Made by a program: the position numbers and the translations under genes | Shown here: positions 5,133 to 47,460 of the stretch, piece after piece | Position numbering within the stretch: position 1 is the first letter of the stretch | Layout: each line of letters opens with the position of its first letter | Notes under the pieces: generated by a model | What the model was told of the DNA's origin: nothing | Database searches by the model: none | Seen by the model: the letters and a program-made list of their open reading frames with translations, nothing else | Sequence record: ON210138.1 | DNA: 64,000 bases | DNA from: Escherichia phage EC106 | Reading direction: 5' to 3' (one strand)

Positions 5133-7124
5133 TCACTCAGTTTCGAATGGGCAGTCATCTGCATCCTCACTTAATACAGGTGGAATCGTTGAGCTTTGAC
5201 GCTGCTCTTCAGTATAGACTTCACCAGTCTCACGGTCAAACACTTCATCCTCATAATGTGGCAAAGAGTCATCATAATGGTCTTCAGCTTCACCAATACC
5301 AAACTGTTGGCGAATATTTTCTGCTGCGCCATCAATGTCAACTCCACAACCAGATGCTTTGATGAGGCGTCCTGTATCTGGATTGTACCAAGTATGACCA
5401 GCAATACCCGTTGACTTACCGTGACGACGACACTTAGTTAACTTGATTTTTGTCAAGTTTTTCTTAACAGGGTCTGGGTCAACCTTGTTACGCATTAACA
5501 GAATGTTGTTCATAGAAATCTGGAAATACGCACCAGAACCTTTAATATCCTCTTCAGAGATATCTCCACCTTCGGAGTTAGCCTTCTGACCACCTGCACT
5601 TTTACGAACGTGACAGACGTTTACCTGTGCATACTGGTAGCGTTTACAACGACGCAATAGCTCAGACAAAACTTCCTCTTCATCCGTATCTGAACGTGAC
5701 AGAGCCAACGTAATAGGGTCAAGAATAATAATCTTACAGTCTAAACTGTTAACAAGATAGTCAACAAATTCCAGCAGGTTATCTTGGTCAATTGCACCTT
5801 GATGGTCAACGATGTGGATACGACGACCTTTAGACAGTTCTGCATGTGCTTCCTTCAATTCATCCCAATCACGTTCGTCATAAGGAATCTCAGAAATCTG
5901 CTTGCTCAGGTGGATTGCACAGAGCATCTCCATCAACTCTTCATATGTATCTTCGACAGGAATTACACCAATATTATAATCAGTTTCTTTCCAAGCAGTG
6001 TAAATCATTTCACGGGTATATGCTGATTTACCTACTGAAGATGGTGCTGCCAGAGTTGTAATCTCACCTAAACCATAACCACCATAAGTCAGTCTGTTCA
6101 AATCTCCGAAAGATTCTGGGAAAGGAATCAATGGAATCTGACCACGATTCTTCATTGCCTCAAAACCATCTGCGAAGTTCTTGATACCAGCAGGACAGTA
6201 ACGAGGTGCATTGTAGATACGCTGCTTAAATCCTTCCAGAACTGTATCTTTCTCTTTATAGAACTTTGTCCACCACTCGTTAAGGTCTTTTACACCCTCT
6301 GGATACTGGAATAAACGAACCTTCTCGATAGGGAGAATGCCAGCAGCCTCTTTAGTGGCTTTAGCACCTGCTTCATCGTTATCAAAGCACAAGTAAATCT
6401 CATCAAATGATGTAATGTACTGATAGTTATCCTTGATAGACTTGATGTTTGCACCTAATGGAACAGATACGTGACAGTAATTTTTACGACGAGACTTGTC
6501 TTTAATCGCAAGAGAAGTCATATAGATTGCTGTCGCACATTCCATCTCACCTTCCCAGATGAATAGACGGTTACCACCTTCTGGAGCAATCCATGAACCG
6601 AACATCGCCAGTTCACCTTTAATGTCTCCAACACCACCTGAGAAGTCTTTTAGCTTACCTCGTAGGTGTTCTTTTGGATGGTCTTCTGGGTAACGGTGAC
6701 GAACACGGTAGCCAACATGTTCTAGCTTGCCATCTTCATTGCGTTTGTAAGTTGGGTAGAAATGTGCGTCAATTTCACCGTCACTGTCAATGTCAACCTT
6801 AATACCCAAACGCTCAAGAACTTTTGCAGGAATCTTCCTGTCCTTTAAGTCCATTGCTTCAAGGTTTTCTTTTACATCACCTAAATCCATTCCACGGAAA
6901 GTACGGTTTTTATTATCTGAACCAGTAGAATAAGTGCTCACGATTTGTCCTTTATCAAAATCCCACTCTGGGAAACCTTTGTTACAGCTAAAGCAAGTCA
7001 TCGAATAAGAATCATCGTCATGGTGGTAGATTGAACCAGCATCTGATGAACCACAACGTGGACATGCACAATGACCAATAAACTGACCAGCCTCTTTCAA
7101 TTTACGACCTTTAGACATTAACAC
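5133..7124 (-). CDS. bifunctional DNA primase-helicase (T7 gp4-like)
   Basis: 663 aa; N-terminal Cys4 zinc finger (CPRCGSS...CFSCNKG), TOPRIM-like FDNDEAG, Walker A GLGEITTLAAPSSVGKS in a DnaB-like helicase half. Confidence 0.85.
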   Translation of the reverse strand: MLMSKGRKLKEAGQFIGHCACPRCGSSDAGSIYHHDDDSYSMTCFSCNKGFPEWDFDKGQIVSTYSTGSDNKNRTFRGMDLGDVKENLEAMDLKDRKIPAKVLERLGIKVDIDSDGEIDAHFYPTYKRNEDGKLEHVGYRVRHRYPEDHPKEHLRGKLKDFSGGVGDIKGELAMFGSWIAPEGGNRLFIWEGEMECATAIYMTSLAIKDKSRRKNYCHVSVPLGANIKSIKDNYQYITSFDEIYLCFDNDEAGAKATKEAAGILPIEKVRLFQYPEGVKDLNEWWTKFYKEKDTVLEGFKQRIYNAPRYCPAGIKNFADGFEAMKNRGQIPLIPFPESFGDLNRLTYGGYGLGEITTLAAPSSVGKSAYTREMIYTAWKETDYNIGVIPVEDTYEELMEMLCAIHLSKQISEIPYDERDWDELKEAHAELSKGRRIHIVDHQGAIDQDNLLEFVDYLVNSLDCKIIILDPITLALSRSDTDEEEVLSELLRRCKRYQYAQVNVCHVRKSAGGQKANSEGGDISEEDIKGSGAYFQISMNNILLMRNKVDPDPVKKNLTKIKLTKCRRHGKSTGIAGHTWYNPDTGRLIKASGCGVDIDGAAENIRQQFGIGEAEDHYDDSLPHYEDEVFDRETGEVYTEEQRQSSTIPPVLSEDADDCPFETE

Positions 7125-42856: not shown

Positions 42857-43057
42857 TTATTCAGAGTCTGTAGCAGTCTCTTCTTTCTTAACTTCGAACT
42901 TTGCATCAACAGCATCAAGAAGTGCATCCATAGATGCTTCTTTAATATCAATACCTGTTGCTACAGATAATCTGTCTGCAATTGCCATGATAGTGTTCTG
43001 CATAAACTCTAACTTCTTGTTAGCTTCATAAAGTTCTTTATAAACGTTCTCGCTCAT
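42857..43057 (-). CDS. hypothetical protein (possible small terminase-associated), start trimmed
   Basis: Track ORF begins at an upstream alternative start; ATG at 43057 gives MSENVYKELYEANKKLEF... Confidence 0.35.
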   Translation of the reverse strand: MSENVYKELYEANKKLEFMQNTIMAIADRLSVATGIDIKEASMDALLDAVDAKFEVKKEETATDSE

Positions 43058-43279
43058 TATGTTTTCTCCAAATAATAAATCTTGTTTCCCCTTAAAAAAG
43101 ACGGCACAGAGACCGTCAAGGAGAAGCCACAATGTACGTCAGAGACATACTGTATAAGTCTTCCTATAAAGTATAACTCTGTAAAAAAGCCCTGTCTAAA
43201 AATACTCTTCGGTAGCGAAAGGAAGAATACTTATAGCAGGGCATTATTATTATTTTAATTGAGAGAGAGTAAAATAAAT

Positions 43280-43355
43280 TGGAGAATCCGAAGGGACTCG
43301 AACCCTTATAAACCTGTTTTGCAGACAGGCACATATCCATTTCTGTCACGGATTC
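43280..43355 (-). tRNA. tRNA-Cys (GCA)
   Basis: 7 bp acceptor gaatccg/cggattc, T-loop GGTTCGAGTCC, loop CTGCAAA, encoded CCA. Confidence 0.75.
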
Positions 43356-43359
43356 AAAT

Positions 43360-43452
43360 TGGAGGAAGATACCAGACTTGAACTGGTACACCGATTTCTC
43401 AGCTACTGGCAGTTTAGCAAACTGCTCCCTTACCTTTTAGGGTTAATCTTCC
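43360..43452 (-). tRNA. tRNA-Ser (GCU), long variable arm
   Basis: Acceptor ggaagat/atcttcc, T-loop GTTCAAGTC, loop TTGCTAA, 93 nt. Confidence 0.7.
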
Positions 43453-43453
43453 A

Positions 43454-44188
43454 TTATTTCTGTAATGCGCTCTTCATTTCTGGTGTTGCAATAGTGTCAA
43501 TTACACCAGTTTTACAGGCATCATCAAACCAGTCTGGTAAGATACCTGCTAAGAACCCATTGATATTCGTTTTAAGGTACTCTGCAATAAGGGCAGCTTC
43601 TTCTTCAATCATCTGCACAACTTCATCTGCATAAGCTGTAATCTTTGAAATACCTTCATTAATTTTACTGACAGCTTGGTTAGCTAAATCAGAAACAGTA
43701 TCAAGACCCTTATCAATAGCGTCTTGTAAGTCACTTAACACACCATTAACACTATCTAGTGTACTGTTAATCGTGTCAATAGCTTTTTGACCATACTCTG
43801 TAGCAACACCCATAATGCCACTGAATGGTGTACAACCAACTTGTTCTCCTGCTGCACCCATAACATTGGAGTATCCCTTTGCTACCTGCATACGTGATGA
43901 AAACTCATCAATAGACTTTTGACCGTAGTCTGTTAGGGTCTTAGTAGTTGCTGTAGTGTTTGTAAGGCTTGTTGTAAAGCTGTTTAGAAGGACTGTTGTA
44001 AGTCCAGCAGCAACAAGCTTCTCCTTCATTGTAGGGTCTGTTACAGAACTAATAGAGCTTACAAGTGATGTAGAGGCAGCTACGGTTCCACCGAGAACTG
44101 CTGCACCAGTAATAAGTGGGTTAGAAAACCCTTTACCGGTTTTTAAGAGATTAAAAATCTCCTTACCTTGTTCTGTCATCTCTTTCAT
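43454..44188 (-). CDS. hypothetical protein embedded in tRNA array (Thr/Ser/Ala-rich)
   Basis: Track ORF 43454-44251 overlaps tRNA-Phe; trimmed to ATG at 44188. Confidence 0.5.
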   Translation of the reverse strand: MKEMTEQGKEIFNLLKTGKGFSNPLITGAAVLGGTVAASTSLVSSISSVTDPTMKEKLVAAGLTTVLLNSFTTSLTNTTATTKTLTDYGQKSIDEFSSRMQVAKGYSNVMGAAGEQVGCTPFSGIMGVATEYGQKAIDTINSTLDSVNGVLSDLQDAIDKGLDTVSDLANQAVSKINEGISKITAYADEVVQMIEEEAALIAEYLKTNINGFLAGILPDWFDDACKTGVIDTIATPEMKSALQK

Positions 44189-44204
44189 TAAGCACCTTTG
44201 AAAT

Positions 44205-44281
44205 TGGTAGTCCAGTGGGATTTGAACCCTCTTCTCATGTTTTTCAGACACGCGCTTTAACCATATAAGCTACTTGGACTA
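44205..44281 (-). tRNA. tRNA-Phe (GAA)
   Basis: T-loop GGGTTCAAATCCC, loop CTGAAAA. Confidence 0.65.
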
Positions 44282-44286
44282 TAAAT

Positions 44287-44362
44287 TGGGGTGACCTACG
44301 GGATTTGAACCCGTATAGACCATGTTCACAGCATGGGTCATTACCTTTTATGATAAGGCCAC
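44287..44362 (-). tRNA. tRNA-His (GUG)
   Basis: T arm acggg-TTCAAAT-cccgt, loop CTGTGAA, extra 5' G. Confidence 0.7.
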
Positions 44363-44393
44363 ATTTAAGGACTCTCGTAAGAACCCTTAGAAG

Positions 44394-44469
44394 TGGCAGC
44401 GGCATAAGGATTTGAACCTTAATAGGACAGCTTCAGAGACTGTTGCATTGCCAGTTATGCTATACCGCT
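44394..44469 (-). tRNA. tRNA-Gln (CUG)
   Basis: D stem gcat/atgc, stem acagt/gctgt, loop CTCTGAA. Confidence 0.6.
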
Positions 44470-44474
44470 AAATT

Positions 44475-44554
44475 TGGTACTCCATATCGGATTCGAACCG
44501 ATACATAACACAGATTTTAAGTCTGGCCTCTCTGCCAATTGGAGTAATGGAGCA
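44475..44554 (-). tRNA. tRNA, anticodon probably UAA (Leu-type) but short variable arm; isotype uncertain
   Basis: Acceptor gctccat/atggagt, T arm atcgg-TTCGAAT-ccgat; anticodon stem imperfect; loop CTTAAAA. Confidence 0.4.
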
Positions 44555-44555
44555 T

Positions 44556-44631
44556 TGGCGGGGGATGTTGGAATTGAACCAACTTCTTCGATTTCAAAGA
44601 CCGAGGTTTTAACCTTGTAAACTAATCCCCT
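44556..44631 (-). tRNA. tRNA-Gln (UUG)
   Basis: Stem tcggt/atcga, loop CTTTGAA, T arm gttgg-TTCAATT-ccaac. Confidence 0.6.
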
Positions 44632-44639
44632 TTAAATCT

Positions 44640-45197
44640 TTACTTTCTCAGTGGATGAATAAAGAATGCCAACATAACTCTTTCCCTTGAGAATGCTCTT
44701 TCTTCTGGGACAACACTTTTTAGTTTCCATCCAACATAAATTCTCCAGTAAAACTGTTTACCAAAGACTTTAATTGATGGGATAAAAGCGAATAACCCCC
44801 AAGCATTACTGTTCCACATTAGGAGATAACCAGTCTGATTATCTTCAGGGTTAGAACTTACGTTGATATTACCTTTCCACTTAGTAACATCTTTTACATC
44901 TCTTCCTAATACATGGTAAGAGAAGTTATAAGCTTTGTTTCTCCAGAGCCATCCAACTCTCTGCATGTAGACACCAAGCTTACCAATCTTTCTAATCTTA
45001 GCCCATCTTTTAACGTGGCCTTCATCACCATCAATCGGGTTGTCATAGGTCTCCATCCATCTGAATCCAAAAGGTAGATGCCCTTTCTTCTCACTGTAGA
45101 ATGGAACTACGAAAGGTGCTAAGATGACTGCTAGGGTTGCTGCAAATGGTTCTAGTAAAGCTAAGAAAATCCATGAAGCATACTTCAAATATCTCAT
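44640..45197 (-). CDS. membrane protein embedded in tRNA array
   Basis: 185 aa; N-terminal hydrophobic segments, Trp-rich. Confidence 0.55.
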   Translation of the reverse strand: MRYLKYASWIFLALLEPFAATLAVILAPFVVPFYSEKKGHLPFGFRWMETYDNPIDGDEGHVKRWAKIRKIGKLGVYMQRVGWLWRNKAYNFSYHVLGRDVKDVTKWKGNINVSSNPEDNQTGYLLMWNSNAWGLFAFIPSIKVFGKQFYWRIYVGWKLKSVVPEERAFSRERVMLAFFIHPLRK

Positions 45198-45216
45198 CTA
45201 AATAGCCTCTTAAAAT

Positions 45217-45294
45217 TGGTGTTCCAAGACGGATTCGAACCGTCACTAATACAAGGTTTGAGCTTGCATCCTCTGCCAATTGGGATACTGGAAC
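45217..45294 (-). tRNA. tRNA with CAA anticodon (Leu-type), short variable arm; isotype uncertain
   Basis: Acceptor gttccag/ttggaac, T arm gacgg-TTCGAAT-ccgtc, loop CTCAAAC. Confidence 0.45.
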
Positions 45295-45295
45295 A

Positions 45296-45370
45296 TGGTA
45301 CTCACTAAAGGACTTGAACCTTTTTCTTCATCTTGTAAGGGTGATGTTTTACCATATAAACTAAGCGAGT
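45296..45370 (-). tRNA. tRNA-Val (UAC)
   Basis: D stem gttt/aaac, loop CTTACAA, T arm aaagg-TTCAAGT-ccttt. Confidence 0.6.
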
Positions 45371-45460
45371 GTGAAAGAGGTCTGAAGTTGTGCCGCTAAC
45401 TCAACTCCGTGGAATTTGTTACGGTCTTCAGTTGACACCAGCGGTCTTTCACTTGACCTC
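45371..45460. ncRNA. tRNA-sized structured element without canonical T-loop (possible degenerate tRNA or small RNA)
   Basis: Closed by perfect 7 bp terminal stem agaggtc/gacctct with internal ctgaag/cttcag helix; fills exactly one tRNA-sized slot. Confidence 0.3.
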
Positions 45461-45465
45461 TGAAT

Positions 45466-45542
45466 TGGTGCTGCTCACAGGACTCGAACCTGCATTTCCA
45501 TCCTTACAAGGGATGTGTAATAGCCAATTATACGAAAGCAGC
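45466..45542 (-). tRNA. tRNA-Thr (UGU)
   Basis: Stem catcc/ggatg, loop CTTGTAA, T arm gcagg-TTCGAGT-cctgt. Confidence 0.7.
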
Positions 45543-45548
45543 ATTATT

Positions 45549-45623
45549 TGGAGCATCCAGAGGGAATCGAACCCTCAACCTCAGTTTGGAAGACTGTAAT
45601 TTTCCCGTTTAAACTATGGATGC
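45549..45623 (-). tRNA. tRNA-Gly (UCC), alternative register would give CCA
   Basis: Perfect acceptor gcatcca/tggatgc, T arm gaggg-TTCGATT-ccctc, loop CTTCCAA. Confidence 0.5.
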
Positions 45624-45629
45624 ACTAAT

Positions 45630-45705
45630 TGGTGGAGTCACTGAGAATTGAACTCAGTTCCCGAGTTTGCAAAACTCGAATTTTAACCATATAAACTATG
45701 ACCCC
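45630..45705 (-). tRNA. tRNA-Ala (UGC)
   Basis: Perfect stem cgagt/actcg, loop TTTGCAA, T arm ctgag-TTCAATT-ctcag. Confidence 0.7.
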
Positions 45706-45710
45706 ATTTT

Positions 45711-45786
45711 TGGTACAGGTGGAGGGAATTGAACCCATCGTCTTACTGATTAAGAGTCAGCCGCATAACCATTTTGCTACACCTGC
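45711..45786 (-). tRNA. tRNA-Lys (CUU)
   Basis: Stem gctga/tcagt, loop CTCTTAA; T arm shared with the UUU Lys copy. Confidence 0.55.
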
Positions 45787-45793
45787 ATTAATT

Positions 45794-45871
45794 TGGTAGG
45801 AGACAAGGGATTCGAACCCTCAAACATCTCGTTCTAAGCGAGATAGGTTTACCAATTACCGTCAATCTCCC
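45794..45871 (-). tRNA. tRNA with UAG anticodon (Leu-type), short variable arm; isotype uncertain
   Basis: Perfect stem tctcg/cgaga, loop CTTAGAA, T-loop GGTTCGAATCC, 5 nt variable loop. Confidence 0.5.
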
Positions 45872-46116
45872 ATTAAATCTTTTTAGAGAACTTCTAAGAA
45901 CCTAAGCAACAAGGTTCCACAACAAGCTGTAATAACCTTAGAAGCCCTCTAAAAAGACCTAAAAAGGTCTTTGCATAGTCTTGTTTAATCCGGTGACTAG
46001 AACCTTTGGAGAGCTTGATATTATCTCTTCTCCGTGACACCTACTAGGTGTTTTATCAGTGTGTACGACAATACACGAGGGATAAACCGAAAATGCGAGC
46101 AAGCATGGACGGTGTA

Positions 46117-46458
46117 TTAAATCTTTAAGCTAAGTTCAGTCTTAGACTTGATATCTTTAGCTTTGTAGATGATGACTTTATCAAGTGGTTCAATGTAAAC
46201 AGCTAAGTAATCAACCTGAGAGTTATCAAAATTCATTATTCTATTTTCATTCTTGTTAGAACGAACTCTTTTCAGTTGCACTCTCCAAAGTTCACCTCTT
46301 TTGACTGATGTTGATTTTACCTCAACAGTCTCAATCAAACCATCTTTGTGAACTAGAAAGTCATACTTTGCATTATCTGTAGCTGGTGAATACACTTCAT
46401 AACCTCTTTTGAGGAAAGCTAATTGTGTAGCAATTTCACCTACTGAACCTTTCTTCAT
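46117..46458 (-). CDS. PD-(D/E)XK-type nuclease-like protein embedded in tRNA array
   Basis: Track ORF overlaps tRNA-Ser; trimmed to ATG at 46458. Motif YDFLVHKDG...ETVEVKS fits the D...(D/E)xK nuclease pattern. Confidence 0.5.
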   Translation of the reverse strand: MKKGSVGEIATQLAFLKRGYEVYSPATDNAKYDFLVHKDGLIETVEVKSTSVKRGELWRVQLKRVRSNKNENRIMNFDNSQVDYLAVYIEPLDKVIIYKAKDIKSKTELSLKI

Positions 46459-46481
46459 AATCACCACCTTAAAAATCATTT

Positions 46482-46568
46482 TGGCAGAGAGTGCAGGAGT
46501 CGAACCCGTACCGTTTCCAGCAGCACCAGTTTTCAAGGCTGGTTGGTCTCCGTTGACCGCCACTCTCT
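46482..46568 (-). tRNA. tRNA-Ser (UGA), long variable arm
   Basis: Perfect acceptor agagagt/actctct, loop CTTGAAA, 87 nt. Confidence 0.65.
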
Positions 46569-46581
46569 CCGAAACAATCTT

Positions 46582-46664
46582 TGGCATGGGACGGAGGAGT
46601 TGAACCCCTTTGAAACGGTTTTGGAGGCCGTTGCTCATGCCTTAGAGTCTTAACATCGTCCCAC
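46582..46664 (-). tRNA. tRNA-Trp (CCA), enlarged D region
   Basis: Acceptor gtgggac/gtcccat, T arm agggg-TTCAACT-cctcc, loop CTCCAAA; 83 nt. Confidence 0.5.
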
Positions 46665-46806
46665 ACTACAATTCGAAGCTTACCGTATTATCTCAACACT
46701 GTAAAGCCCCTTCTCAGATTATTTACATGTTCTGGAAAACATGAGATACAGACCACCTCCTTACACGGAGACCCGATAAGGTCGTCTAAGCAATCTGCTA
46801 ACTATT

Positions 46807-46883
46807 TGGCACACCCTACAGGATTCGAACCTGTAACTAACGATTTAGAAGACCGTTGCTCTATCCAATTGAACTAAGGGTGC
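46807..46883 (-). tRNA. tRNA-Arg (UCU)
   Basis: Stem acggt/atcgt, loop CTTCTAA, T arm tacagg-TTCGAAT-cctgta. Confidence 0.7.
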
Positions 46884-47220
46884 ATTAATCTTTAAAGACT
46901 CTCTTAGAAAGCCCTTAAAGATGCCCACCTTATTAATCATACCGTGGGCTAGTACGCCAAATTCTTTGATGAGGGATTGGAAGACCTCACTGGTGTTTAG
47001 CCTATCAAGCTACTGCCAGAAAAACATTGTCGTTTGCATTTATTTTAAATTTGCAAAATAGACGCTACGCAACGAAAACTATTCAGAATATGTACAACAA
47101 ATTTCCCCACATTGTGTTACGTCTAACGCTCATGTATTGGTGTTTGAATTATACATATGCTGAATCATTTTCAGTTACTATAAAGCGGTCGCATCTCAAT
47201 GTCAACAACTTTATTGAAAT

Positions 47221-47295
47221 TGGTTGTAGGTGAGGGTATCGAACCCTCTTCTAACGGTTATCAGCCGTTTGCATTACCATTTATGCTAACCCACA
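47221..47295 (-). tRNA. tRNA-Ile (GAU)
   Basis: Perfect stem aacgg/ccgtt, loop CTGATAA, T arm gaggg-TTCGATA-ccctc. Confidence 0.75.
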
Positions 47296-47297
47296 AT

Positions 47298-47374
47298 TGG
47301 AGGTTCAGATGGGAATCGAACCCACATTCATAGGGCTTATGAAACCCCTGCATTACCTTATCTGCGACTGAACC
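47298..47374 (-). tRNA. tRNA-Met (CAU)
   Basis: Perfect acceptor ggttcag/ctgaacc, loop TTCATAA, T-loop GGTTCGATTCC. Confidence 0.65.
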
Positions 47375-47378
47375 ATAT

Positions 47379-47454
47379 TGGTAGAAGTGGAGGGATTCGA
47401 ACCCATCGCCTGTCAGATTAAAAGTCTGCCGCATCACCATTCTGCTACACTTCC
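47379..47454 (-). tRNA. tRNA-Lys (UUU)
   Basis: Acceptor ggaagtg/cacttct, loop CTTTTAA, T-loop GGTTCGAATCC. Confidence 0.65.
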
Positions 47455-47460
47455 ATTAAA

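Follow-up and report, generated by a model that had tools for sequence, protein, structure and literature searches.

Leucine tRNAs with short variable loops in the tRNA array of a FelixO1-like phage

We examined three tRNA genes with leucine anticodons in a 64,000-nt stretch of Escherichia phage EC106 (sequence record ON210138.1), which we refer to as the window. The window is from a FelixO1-like myovirus of the genus Felixounavirus, and its tRNA region is 96.8% identical to that of Felixounavirus LF110P1. An earlier reading from the letters alone (the sequence-only reading) had folded the three tRNAs by hand and reported short variable loops, whereas bacterial tRNALeu has a long variable arm. 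It proposed that either the anticodon registers were wrong or the tRNAs are unusual and possibly charged with another amino acid. The three genes are:

44475..44553, minus strand: tRNA-Leu(UAA), 79 nt including the encoded CCA; found by ARAGORN and by Rfam (47.5 bits)
45217..45294, minus strand: tRNA-Leu(CAA), 78 nt including the encoded CCA; found by ARAGORN and by Rfam (44.0 bits)
45794..45871, minus strand: tRNA-Leu(UAG), 78 nt including the encoded CCA; found by ARAGORN and by Rfam (44.5 bits)

ARAGORN and Rfam agree on these sites and on the anticodons, and the variable loops have 7, 6, and 5 nt, so the central observation of the sequence-only reading stands. (Its ends for the CAA and UAG genes were also correct, but it ended the UAA gene at 44554, which is one base too many.) The matches to Rfam's tRNA model (RF00005, with a gathering score of 29 bits) are full length, covering model positions 1-71, with E values of 4e-7 to 5e-8. 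In ARAGORN's structures, each leucine anticodon follows U33 in a 7-nt loop. The variable regions are GUUAUGU in Leu-UAA, AUUAGU in Leu-CAA, and UGUUU in Leu-UAG, and all are unpaired. With just 5-7 nt separating the anticodon stem from the T stem, none of the three has a variable stem. (In a class II tRNA, the variable region is about 10 nt or more and forms a stem-loop.) Variable-loop lengths are bimodal, at 5-7 nt and 9-25 nt, and the Leu tRNAs in the window belong to the short mode. All three variable loops end in U48, and the discriminator base is A73 in all three.

These tRNAs are indeed unusual, as the sequence-only reading suspected. According to a 2023 review, tRNALeu has a long arm everywhere except in animal mitochondria (PMC9976931), and a 2019 paper describes nearly all tRNALeu of bacteria as type II (PMC6614811). 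The sequence-only reading had also noted that the Ser and Tyr tRNAs of the same array do have long arms, and this is correct: they are 93, 87, and 88 nt long, with variable stem-loops. The array and these internal comparators are:

43280..48572, minus strand: tRNA array of 25 tRNA genes (ARAGORN), all on the minus strand and all encoding CCA, with a few interspersed open reading frames (ORFs)
43360..43452, minus strand: tRNA-Ser(GCU), 93 nt, with a long variable stem-loop (ARAGORN)
46482..46568, minus strand: tRNA-Ser(UGA), 87 nt, with a long variable arm (ARAGORN)
47993..48080, minus strand: tRNA-Tyr(GUA), 88 nt, with a long variable arm (ARAGORN)

Rfam's tRNA model finds 22 of ARAGORN's 25 tRNA genes above threshold, including all three Leu tRNAs. 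(Rfam places tRNA-Ser(UGA) under its tRNA-Sec model, at 34 bits.) We also considered a hidden type II Leu tRNA or a Leu pseudogene elsewhere in the array, but a permissive Rfam scan of 43000-49000 found no other Leu-like tRNA and gave only weak scraps.

In more detail, the T loop is canonical in all three tRNAs. Leu-UAA has G1.U72 and C2-G71 in its acceptor stem, U8, and an anticodon loop of CUUAAAA. Its D arm has a 3-bp stem (CUC/GAG) and an 11-nt loop, CAAUUGGCAGA, which we number as A14 A15 U16 U17 G18 G19 C20 A20a G21 A22. Leu-CAA has G1-C72 and U2-A71; the same 11-nt D loop, CAAUUGGCAGA, on a UCC/GGA stem; and an anticodon loop of CUCAAAC, with an anticodon stem that can be extended by U26-A44. 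In Leu-UAG, the first pair is G1.U72, the acceptor and D stems are separated by three nucleotides (UGA), the D arm has a GGU/ACC stem and the loop AAUUGGUAA, and the anticodon loop is CUUAGAA.

To see if these structures are conserved, we aligned 55 distinct short-arm Leu tRNAs from the window, other Ounavirinae, T5-like phages, Acinetobacter and Lactobacillus phages, and IMG/VR contigs. (The added Ounavirinae are Salmonella phage FG1m, Erwinia phage FIfi106, and Pectobacterium phage Arno18; the T5-like phages are BF23 and Aeromonas phage AhP_Mru1; the others are Acinetobacter phage Rocket and Lactobacillus phage LpeD.) The alignment supports a cloverleaf with an acceptor stem of 7 bp, a D stem of 3 bp, an anticodon stem of 5 bp, and a T stem of 5 bp. 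In this cloverleaf, 97.5% of the alignment cells are paired, and 19 of the 20 pairs have compensatory changes, with both sides altered. The covariation score is 1.06, as compared to 0.25 with shuffled partners or 0.13-0.20 if the partners are slid by 1-3 columns. Fourteen positions are invariant: U8, A14, G18, G19, A20a, U33, A35, U48, G53, T54, C56, A58, C61, and A73. A15 is present in at least 90% of the sequences. G1.U72 replaces G1-C72 in 27 of the 55, including two of the three in the window. The covariation implies that the registers are fixed and that these RNAs are under selection as tRNAs. In particular, the register of the anticodon is fixed because U33 is invariant and the cloverleaf holds in 55 distinct homologs.

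It is hard to maintain, then, that the short arms are an artifact of gene calling, with the wrong boundaries, the wrong register, or misfolding hiding a long arm; we give this almost no credence. Single-sequence minimum free energy folding does yield only a partial cloverleaf, and no cloverleaf for Leu-UAA, with weak z-scores of -1.4 to -1.8. But single-sequence folding is uninformative for tRNAs, which is why we relied on covariation, and covariation fixes every helix. Furthermore, two independent tRNA finders concur, the permissive scan turned up no further Leu-like tRNA in the array, and with 75-76 nt before the CCA, there is no space for an arm. Overall, ARAGORN, the Rfam covariance model, and covariation rule out the wrong registers that the sequence-only reading had allowed for. 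Neither of the outcomes that it named as refuting its observation was found by ARAGORN or Rfam: the covariance model gave no other anticodons, and no long-arm Leu tRNA turned up elsewhere in the array.

We then asked which amino acid the three tRNAs carry. The known identity set for leucine in E. coli comprises A73, the A15-U48 trans-Levitt pair, G18G19, A20a, and tertiary pairs that link the D loop to the T loop (PMC9976931). The leucyl-tRNA synthetase (LeuRS) of E. coli reads neither the anticodon nor the long arm (PMC9976931). In experiments with in vitro selection (SELEX) and minimal tRNALeu, the sequence and folding of the arm were uncorrelated with leucylation, and a minimal tRNALeu with no arm was still active (PMC9976931). 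For the LeuRS of Aquifex, deleting the arm leaves 7.8% of kcat/Km, while deleting U48 abolishes charging (PMC2377443).

The sequence-only reading had suggested a comparison to the requirements of the host's LeuRS. We found that the known identity nucleotides of E. coli LeuRS are present in all three tRNAs: A73, U8/A14, A15 and U48 (which probably pair with each other), G18G19, and A20a. U48 is the last variable nucleotide in all 63 of the short Leu tRNAs that we found, which fits the effect of deleting U48 in Aquifex (PMC2377443). The E. coli tRNAs with the same anticodons, leuZ (UAA), leuX (CAA), and leuW (UAG), share A73, U8/A14, A15 and U48, the canonical T loop, and the encoded CCA. Like Leu-UAA and Leu-CAA, they have a 3-bp D stem with an 11-nt loop of the form N-A-A-Y-Y-G-G-Y-A-G-A. 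The spacing of the D loop in Leu-UAA and Leu-CAA (CAAUUGGCAGA, with a 3-bp stem) is the same as in leuW (AAAUUGGUAGA); Leu-UAG keeps the core, AAUUGGUAA, but has an extra nucleotide and an irregular stem. The G1.U72 of two of the phage tRNAs is also found in leuZ. As for the differences, leuZ, leuX, and leuW of E. coli K-12 are 87, 85, and 85 nt long, and their variable regions have 13-15 nt, versus 5-7 unpaired nucleotides in the phage tRNAs. leuZ and leuW have a stem in the variable region, while the phage tRNAs have none. Also, leuW has U32, G37, and U38, where Leu-UAG has C32, A37, and A38.

We rejected an origin of the phage genes from those of the host. Outside the variable region, they are only about 50% identical to the E. 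coli Leu tRNAs, too little for recently copied host genes. We also found no BLAST match for Leu-UAA in 5,426 complete E. coli genomes.

Isotype scores, another check that the sequence-only reading had proposed, have been published for the sister phage Sf14. Sf14 has the very same Leu-CAA as the window, and a Leu-UAA that differs by one nucleotide. tRNAscan-SE's leucine model scores highest for all three of Sf14's Leu tRNAs (PMC12482277). Sf14's Leu-CAA scores 49.1 with the leucine model, versus 36.1 for the next model, and Leu-UAA scores 60.2, versus 54.2 for lysine (PMC12482277). (The paper on Sf14's tRNAs does not mention the variable arm; PMC12482277.) If the anticodon and the variable region are removed, then the nearest neighbors of all three tRNAs are Leu tRNAs, with the short ones first and then the long ones. 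This test is only moderately strong because the data set is enriched in Leu tRNAs. Still, it does not favor the idea that the tRNAs arose by an anticodon switch in another type I tRNA.

If the tRNAs were instead charged with another amino acid, they would cause the recoding or the deliberate mistranslation of UUA, UUG, and CUA. Their type I body is typical of tRNAs for most other amino acids, and for some of them, the isotype scores for Lys, Ile2, or Arg are close below Leu (as with 60.2 versus 54.2 for Sf14's Leu-UAA). However, the leucine model is at the top for all three of Sf14's Leu tRNAs, and the complete LeuRS identity set is present. The tRNAs lack the G3.U70 pair that would suggest alanine, as well as the G73 and the long arm that would suggest serine. 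Synthetases that read the anticodon would refuse UAA, CAA, and UAG, given the identity rules (PMC9976931). And in conserved proteins, these codons occur at leucine or aliphatic positions. When we compared the terminase and the portal protein to their homologs in three other phages, the homologs had leucine at 70% of UUA, 37% of UUG, and 53% of CUA positions. They had one of Leu, Ile, Val, Met, or Phe at 83%, 73%, and 73% of these positions, and CUU, CUC, and CUG gave similar results, so there is no signal of recoding. We consider it very unlikely that the tRNAs carry another amino acid, and this suggestion from the sequence-only reading is not supported. All of the sequence evidence says that they are leucine tRNAs, and we found nothing that points to another amino acid.

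Why would the phage encode these tRNAs? The window is 38.8% G+C and its long ORFs contain 1,257 leucine codons: 27% UUA, 27% CUU, 14% UUG, 13% CUG, 12% CUA, and 7% CUC. (The sequence-only reading had asked about the usage of UUA, UUG, and CUA.) In E. coli, by contrast, CUG accounts for around half of the leucine codons in codon-usage tables and is served by four gene copies, and the tRNALeu with UAA, CAA, and UAG anticodons are single-copy minor isoacceptors. The phage's anticodons are exactly those of the host's three minor isoacceptors, which suggests that the phage tRNAs top up the decoding of over-used codons. In the mechanism that we propose, the tRNAs would be transcribed with the rest of the array and matured by host enzymes, with CCA already encoded. 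They would be leucylated by the LeuRS of the host (E. coli or Salmonella). Leu-UAA would then decode UUA and UUG, Leu-CAA would decode UUG, and Leu-UAG would decode CUA and probably other CUN codons. The phage appears to use these codons far beyond what the host's tRNA pool is set up for. We think it probable, from the sequence features described above, that these genes encode working leucine tRNAs with a short, type I variable loop and, for Leu-UAA and Leu-CAA, a D arm and elbow like those of E. coli tRNALeu.

Several observations weigh against this conclusion, and some of them would fit a different view, in which these are decaying or poor copies that yield tRNA-like RNAs but are charged weakly or not at all, since E. 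coli LeuRS prefers type II tRNAs. First, the type I tRNALeu(CAA) from Streptomyces was not charged by E. coli LeuRS in one study, whose remark that this enzyme charges only type II tRNAs is the main published ground for caution (PMC6614811). Second, the deletion of the arm from the Aquifex tRNA cost about 13-fold in kcat/Km (PMC2377443), so the charging of the phage tRNAs may be inefficient. Third, among the array's tRNAs, Rfam scores these three lowest; Leu-UAA has a C27.U43 mismatch in its anticodon stem; and the D arm of Leu-UAG is irregular, with the AAUUGGUAA core but one extra nucleotide. Leu-UAG also has A37 instead of the G37 of leuW. Fourth, in ARAGORN's drawings, several of this phage's non-Leu tRNAs also have 3-bp D stems, so a 3-bp D stem by itself is not specific to leucine here. 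A broken, chimeric Leu gene in the relative FG1m, described below, implies that loss has been tolerated at least once.

On the other hand, Leu-UAA is nearly the same in 215 phage records (at least 99% identity, and 100% identical in FelixO1, AF320576), and whole phage subfamilies have no other Leu tRNA. Compensatory changes maintain the helices across the 55 sequences, and it is the LeuRS identity nucleotides that are invariant. Decay therefore seems quite unlikely to us.

The short Leu tRNAs are not peculiar to the window. The array region, for most of its length, also matches that of over 200 related phages of Escherichia, Salmonella, Shigella, and Citrobacter, and syntenic tRNA arrays are present in over 200 Ounavirinae records. 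Every Ounavirinae genome that we examined (Felixounavirus, Mooglevirus, Kolesnikvirus, and Arno18) has only short Leu tRNAs. In GenBank, these genes are mostly labeled as tRNA-Leu, but some are labeled as tRNA-OTHER or are not annotated. We define a group of phage type I tRNALeu by a leucine anticodon, a variable loop of 5-7 nt that ends in U48, A73, a Leu-type D loop, and a location in a phage tRNA array. All three Leu tRNAs from the window fit, with the D loop being clearly Leu-type in Leu-UAA and Leu-CAA, and the 55 distinct members are from Ounavirinae, Demerecviridae, Herelleviridae, one Acinetobacter phage, and IMG/VR contigs.

T5 and BF23, which are from the same genus, provide an informative comparison. 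Adjoining its tRNA-Ala(UGC), T5 carries a type II Leu(UAG) of 85 nt (locus L004, 11625-11709). In the same slot beside tRNA-Ala(UGC), BF23 has a 77-nt type I Leu(UAG) (locus L248, 8997-9073), and this form is found, at 95% identity or above, in around 160 T5-like phages. The BF23 tRNA is unrelated in sequence to T5's, but shares its T arm and the 3' strand of its acceptor stem with the window's Leu(UAG). We rejected the idea that BF23's tRNA arose by deleting the arm of the T5 gene: the two sequences differ throughout, which implies that the gene was replaced in the same slot. This replacement, along with the similarity between the Leu(UAG) of FelixO1-type phages and BF23, is consistent with exchange. 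BLAST also found relatives of the Erwinia-type short Leu(CAA) in phages of Mycobacterium and Streptomyces, which may likewise have short arms; these lie outside the alignment.

For a broader sample, we searched for the pattern AATTGGYAKA N26-50 RGTTCRANTCY, which combines a Leu-type D loop and a T loop with a free gap between them, and ran ARAGORN on 120 loci each from IMG/VR and GTDB:

IMG/VR viral contigs, 120 loci: 150 Leu tRNAs, 40 of them short (5-7 nt); 0 of 48 Ser tRNAs short; 2 of 21 Tyr tRNAs short
GTDB bacterial genomes, 120 loci: 100 Leu tRNAs, 5 of them short; 0 of 9 Ser tRNAs short; 0 of 6 Tyr tRNAs short

The excess of short Leu tRNAs in viruses is significant (Fisher p = 7e-6 per tRNA or 2e-5 per locus). 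A caveat is that these are pattern-selected samples of 120 loci and not a census, so the percentages are only indicative, which also tempers our conclusion. Viral loci with short Leu tRNAs are rich in tRNAs (a median of 11 versus 4), and nine of the loci mix both types. The bacterial sample's five short Leu tRNAs come from three contigs. Two of these are from actinobacteria, Gordonia (locus L160, 491-566) and Herbiconiux (locus L204, 2732-2806), and have a single type I Leu(UAA) each. The third, from a metagenome-assembled genome of a Planctomycetota (locus L223, 3550-3794), has three type I Leu tRNAs (CAG, UAA, and GAG) in a row beside a Tyr tRNA. As judged from sequence, then, these are natural type I tRNALeu, built on an E. 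coli-type identity set, that are widespread in phages, and they are common there and rare in bacteria. In the literature that we searched, we found no description of short-arm tRNALeu in phages, although subscription-only and older work (such as the sequencing of T5 and BF23 tRNAs in the 1970s-80s) was outside our reach.

Among bacterial systems, the nearest precedent in nature is Streptomyces coelicolor's type I tRNALeu(CAA). Like the phage tRNAs, it has a short variable loop (5 nt) and works in bacterial-type translation (PMC6614811). It coexists with type II Leu tRNAs, and it needs a minimum of 5 nt in the variable region, including position 48 (PMC6614811). But its loop is ACAGC, with C48 where the phage tRNAs have U48, and its key determinant is C74 rather than A73, which is invariant in the phage tRNAs (PMC6614811). 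It also needs the leucine-specific domain (LSD) of Streptomyces LeuRS (PMC6614811). With U48 and an invariant A73, the phage tRNAs are not of the Streptomyces type, in which C48 is present and A73 is not decisive.

Animal mitochondrial tRNALeu, such as human mt-tRNALeu(UUR), also have a short variable loop, and their identity depends on A73 and A14 (PMC9976931). However, they are floppy and degenerate and have a dedicated LeuRS, whereas the phage tRNAs have a canonical G18G19/T54-psi55-C56 elbow and would require the host's ordinary LeuRS. Engineered tRNALeu of E. coli or Aquifex with no arm are substrates for LeuRS if A73, U48, and the core formed by the D and T arms are kept (PMC9976931, PMC2377443). 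Those tRNAs are artificial and less efficient; the phage tRNAs are natural and conserved, and their core evolved together with the short loop. Finally, the tRNALeu of T4 and T5 are also from coliphage tRNA clusters, but they are type II (87 nt for T4's Leu and 85 nt for T5's Leu(UAG)).

Why was the arm lost from Leu tRNAs, while the Ser and Tyr tRNAs of the same phages retain theirs? The seryl- and bacterial tyrosyl-tRNA synthetases (SerRS and TyrRS) bind the long arms of their tRNAs, whereas bacterial LeuRS recognizes the discriminator and the elbow or hinge. Our sample, in which short forms are frequent among the Leu tRNAs but rare or absent among those for Tyr and Ser, matches this asymmetry. 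Of the three class II systems in bacteria, that of LeuRS alone manages without the arm, and this is probably what allowed the loss. Most simply, the arm would have been free to go, and compact and fast-evolving phage genomes would have lost it repeatedly or exchanged arm-less versions. Candidate reasons for its fixation are neutral deletion or compaction, safety from cross-recognition by SerRS, and escape from factors that read the class II shape.

The last two of these would make the loss of the arm an adaptation that phages have reached repeatedly, by which a LeuRS-charged tRNALeu is hidden from readers of the class II shape (toxins or nucleases of defense systems, or SerRS). This is speculative and we doubt it, but if true, the phage would have a protected supply of tRNAs for decoding leucine during infection, and type I tRNALeu would mark an undescribed arms race. 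Going further, the tRNAs might act mainly beyond decoding, as replacements or decoys that resist a host effector (such as a nuclease, a nucleotidyltransferase, or an acetyltransferase) that targets tRNALeu or the class II shape, with the loss of the arm being adaptive. Phage tRNAs are known to evade anticodon nucleases via changes in the loop (PMC10264068, PMC11555353), and the toxin MenT3 grips tRNASer by its long variable loop (PMC11541572). The anticodon loops of the phage's Leu tRNAs are unlike the host's, with C32 and, in Leu-UAG, A37/A38. Also, short Leu tRNAs recur in unrelated families of phages, and BF23's short one lies where T5 has a long one. But recurrent loss is equally expected under relaxed constraint, codon use alone explains the choice of anticodons, and in the literature that we searched, we found no defense system that targets tRNALeu via its arm. 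We view a role mainly beyond decoding as unlikely. It would still need charging with leucine, so it would add to our explanation rather than replace it.

If these are working tRNAs, as we propose, they run against the textbook generalization about the arm of tRNALeu and against a recent biochemical claim about E. coli LeuRS. Streptomyces was the single bacterial exception and was reported as new in 2019 (PMC6614811). Yet whole groups of coliphages (the FelixO1-like phages and the BF23-like relatives of T5) have Leu tRNAs that are all, or in part, of the short-arm form, and these genes offer a direct and natural test of the claim that type II tRNALeu are the only ones charged by E. coli LeuRS. 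If the phage tRNAs are charged as predicted, this would be natural proof that enterobacterial LeuRS can dispense with the long arm in vivo. It would also reveal the core nucleotides that make up for the absence of the arm (U48, A15, A20a, and A73) and would explain why the arm was lost in Leu but not in Ser or Tyr tRNAs. In practice, it would provide compact Leu tRNA scaffolds for the design of suppressors and for engineering the genetic code, and annotation pipelines would have a recognized class for these genes instead of odd flags or tRNA-OTHER.

We also noticed some other unusual features of tRNA genes, in the window and in its relatives. In Salmonella phage FG1m, the nominal tRNA-Leu(CAA) (locus L002, 5999-6076) starts with the 5' two-thirds of Leu-CAA and, from the shared T loop on, continues with the 3' end of Leu-UAA. 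Its acceptor stem no longer pairs, and the intervening DUF7338 ORF and Gln-UUG were deleted. In this chimera, the recombination of two tRNA genes has led to a natural deletion.

In the window, tRNA-Glu(UUC) (48411-48488, minus strand) has the same 5' acceptor strand, GUUCCAG, as tRNA-Leu(CAA) at 45217-45294. Its D arm consists of a 3-bp stem and an 11-nt loop, AAAAUGGUAAA, and its variable loop, of 6 nt, ends in U. The two tRNAs are 67% identical outside of the anticodon and the variable loop, which suggests that tRNA genes of different isotypes arose by duplication or recombined with each other.

The second tRNA-Met(CAU) (48243-48319, minus strand) was called by ARAGORN, but Rfam's tRNA model gives no match there, even with a cutoff of E <= 1. 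In the anticodon loop of this tRNA, CUCAUUA, U37 takes the place of a purine, and positions 1 and 72 do not pair. The same loop is listed as odd in the Sf14 paper (PMC12482277). Two spacers in the array, at 46588-46662 and 47662-47712 (both on the minus strand), have weak tRNA-like matches (23 and 22 bits, E of about 0.4-0.5) and may be remnants of lost tRNA genes.

Among the protein-coding genes, a 173-amino-acid ORF within the array (46117-46638, minus strand) has a PD-(D/E)XK endonuclease domain (PF11645, 1e-16) and looks like the insertion of a mobile nuclease. As drawn, the ORF and tRNA-Ser(UGA) (46482-46568) overlap on the same strand; the true start of the ORF is probably downstream of that tRNA. 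Directly upstream of the array, a 471-amino-acid protein (48738-50153, minus strand) matches DUF2828 and DUF7788, with a weak match to VWA. Its homolog in FG1m is annotated as an RNA-binding protein, and a link to the handling of tRNAs or small RNAs is possible.

Other phages have unusual tRNAs as well. Aeromonas phage AhP_Mru1 has tRNAs with CUA and UCA anticodons (amber and opal types; locus L001, 1900-1974 and 2796-2869), which are annotated as suppressor tRNAs. Lactobacillus phage LpeD has a tRNA(UAU, Ile) of class II length (92 nt; locus L003, 4296-4387) and a tRNA-like gene with an 8-nt anticodon loop (5574-5645). And the IMG/VR sample includes several tRNAs of class II length whose anticodons are not for Leu, Ser, or Tyr, such as five Ile tRNAs of 88-89 nt.

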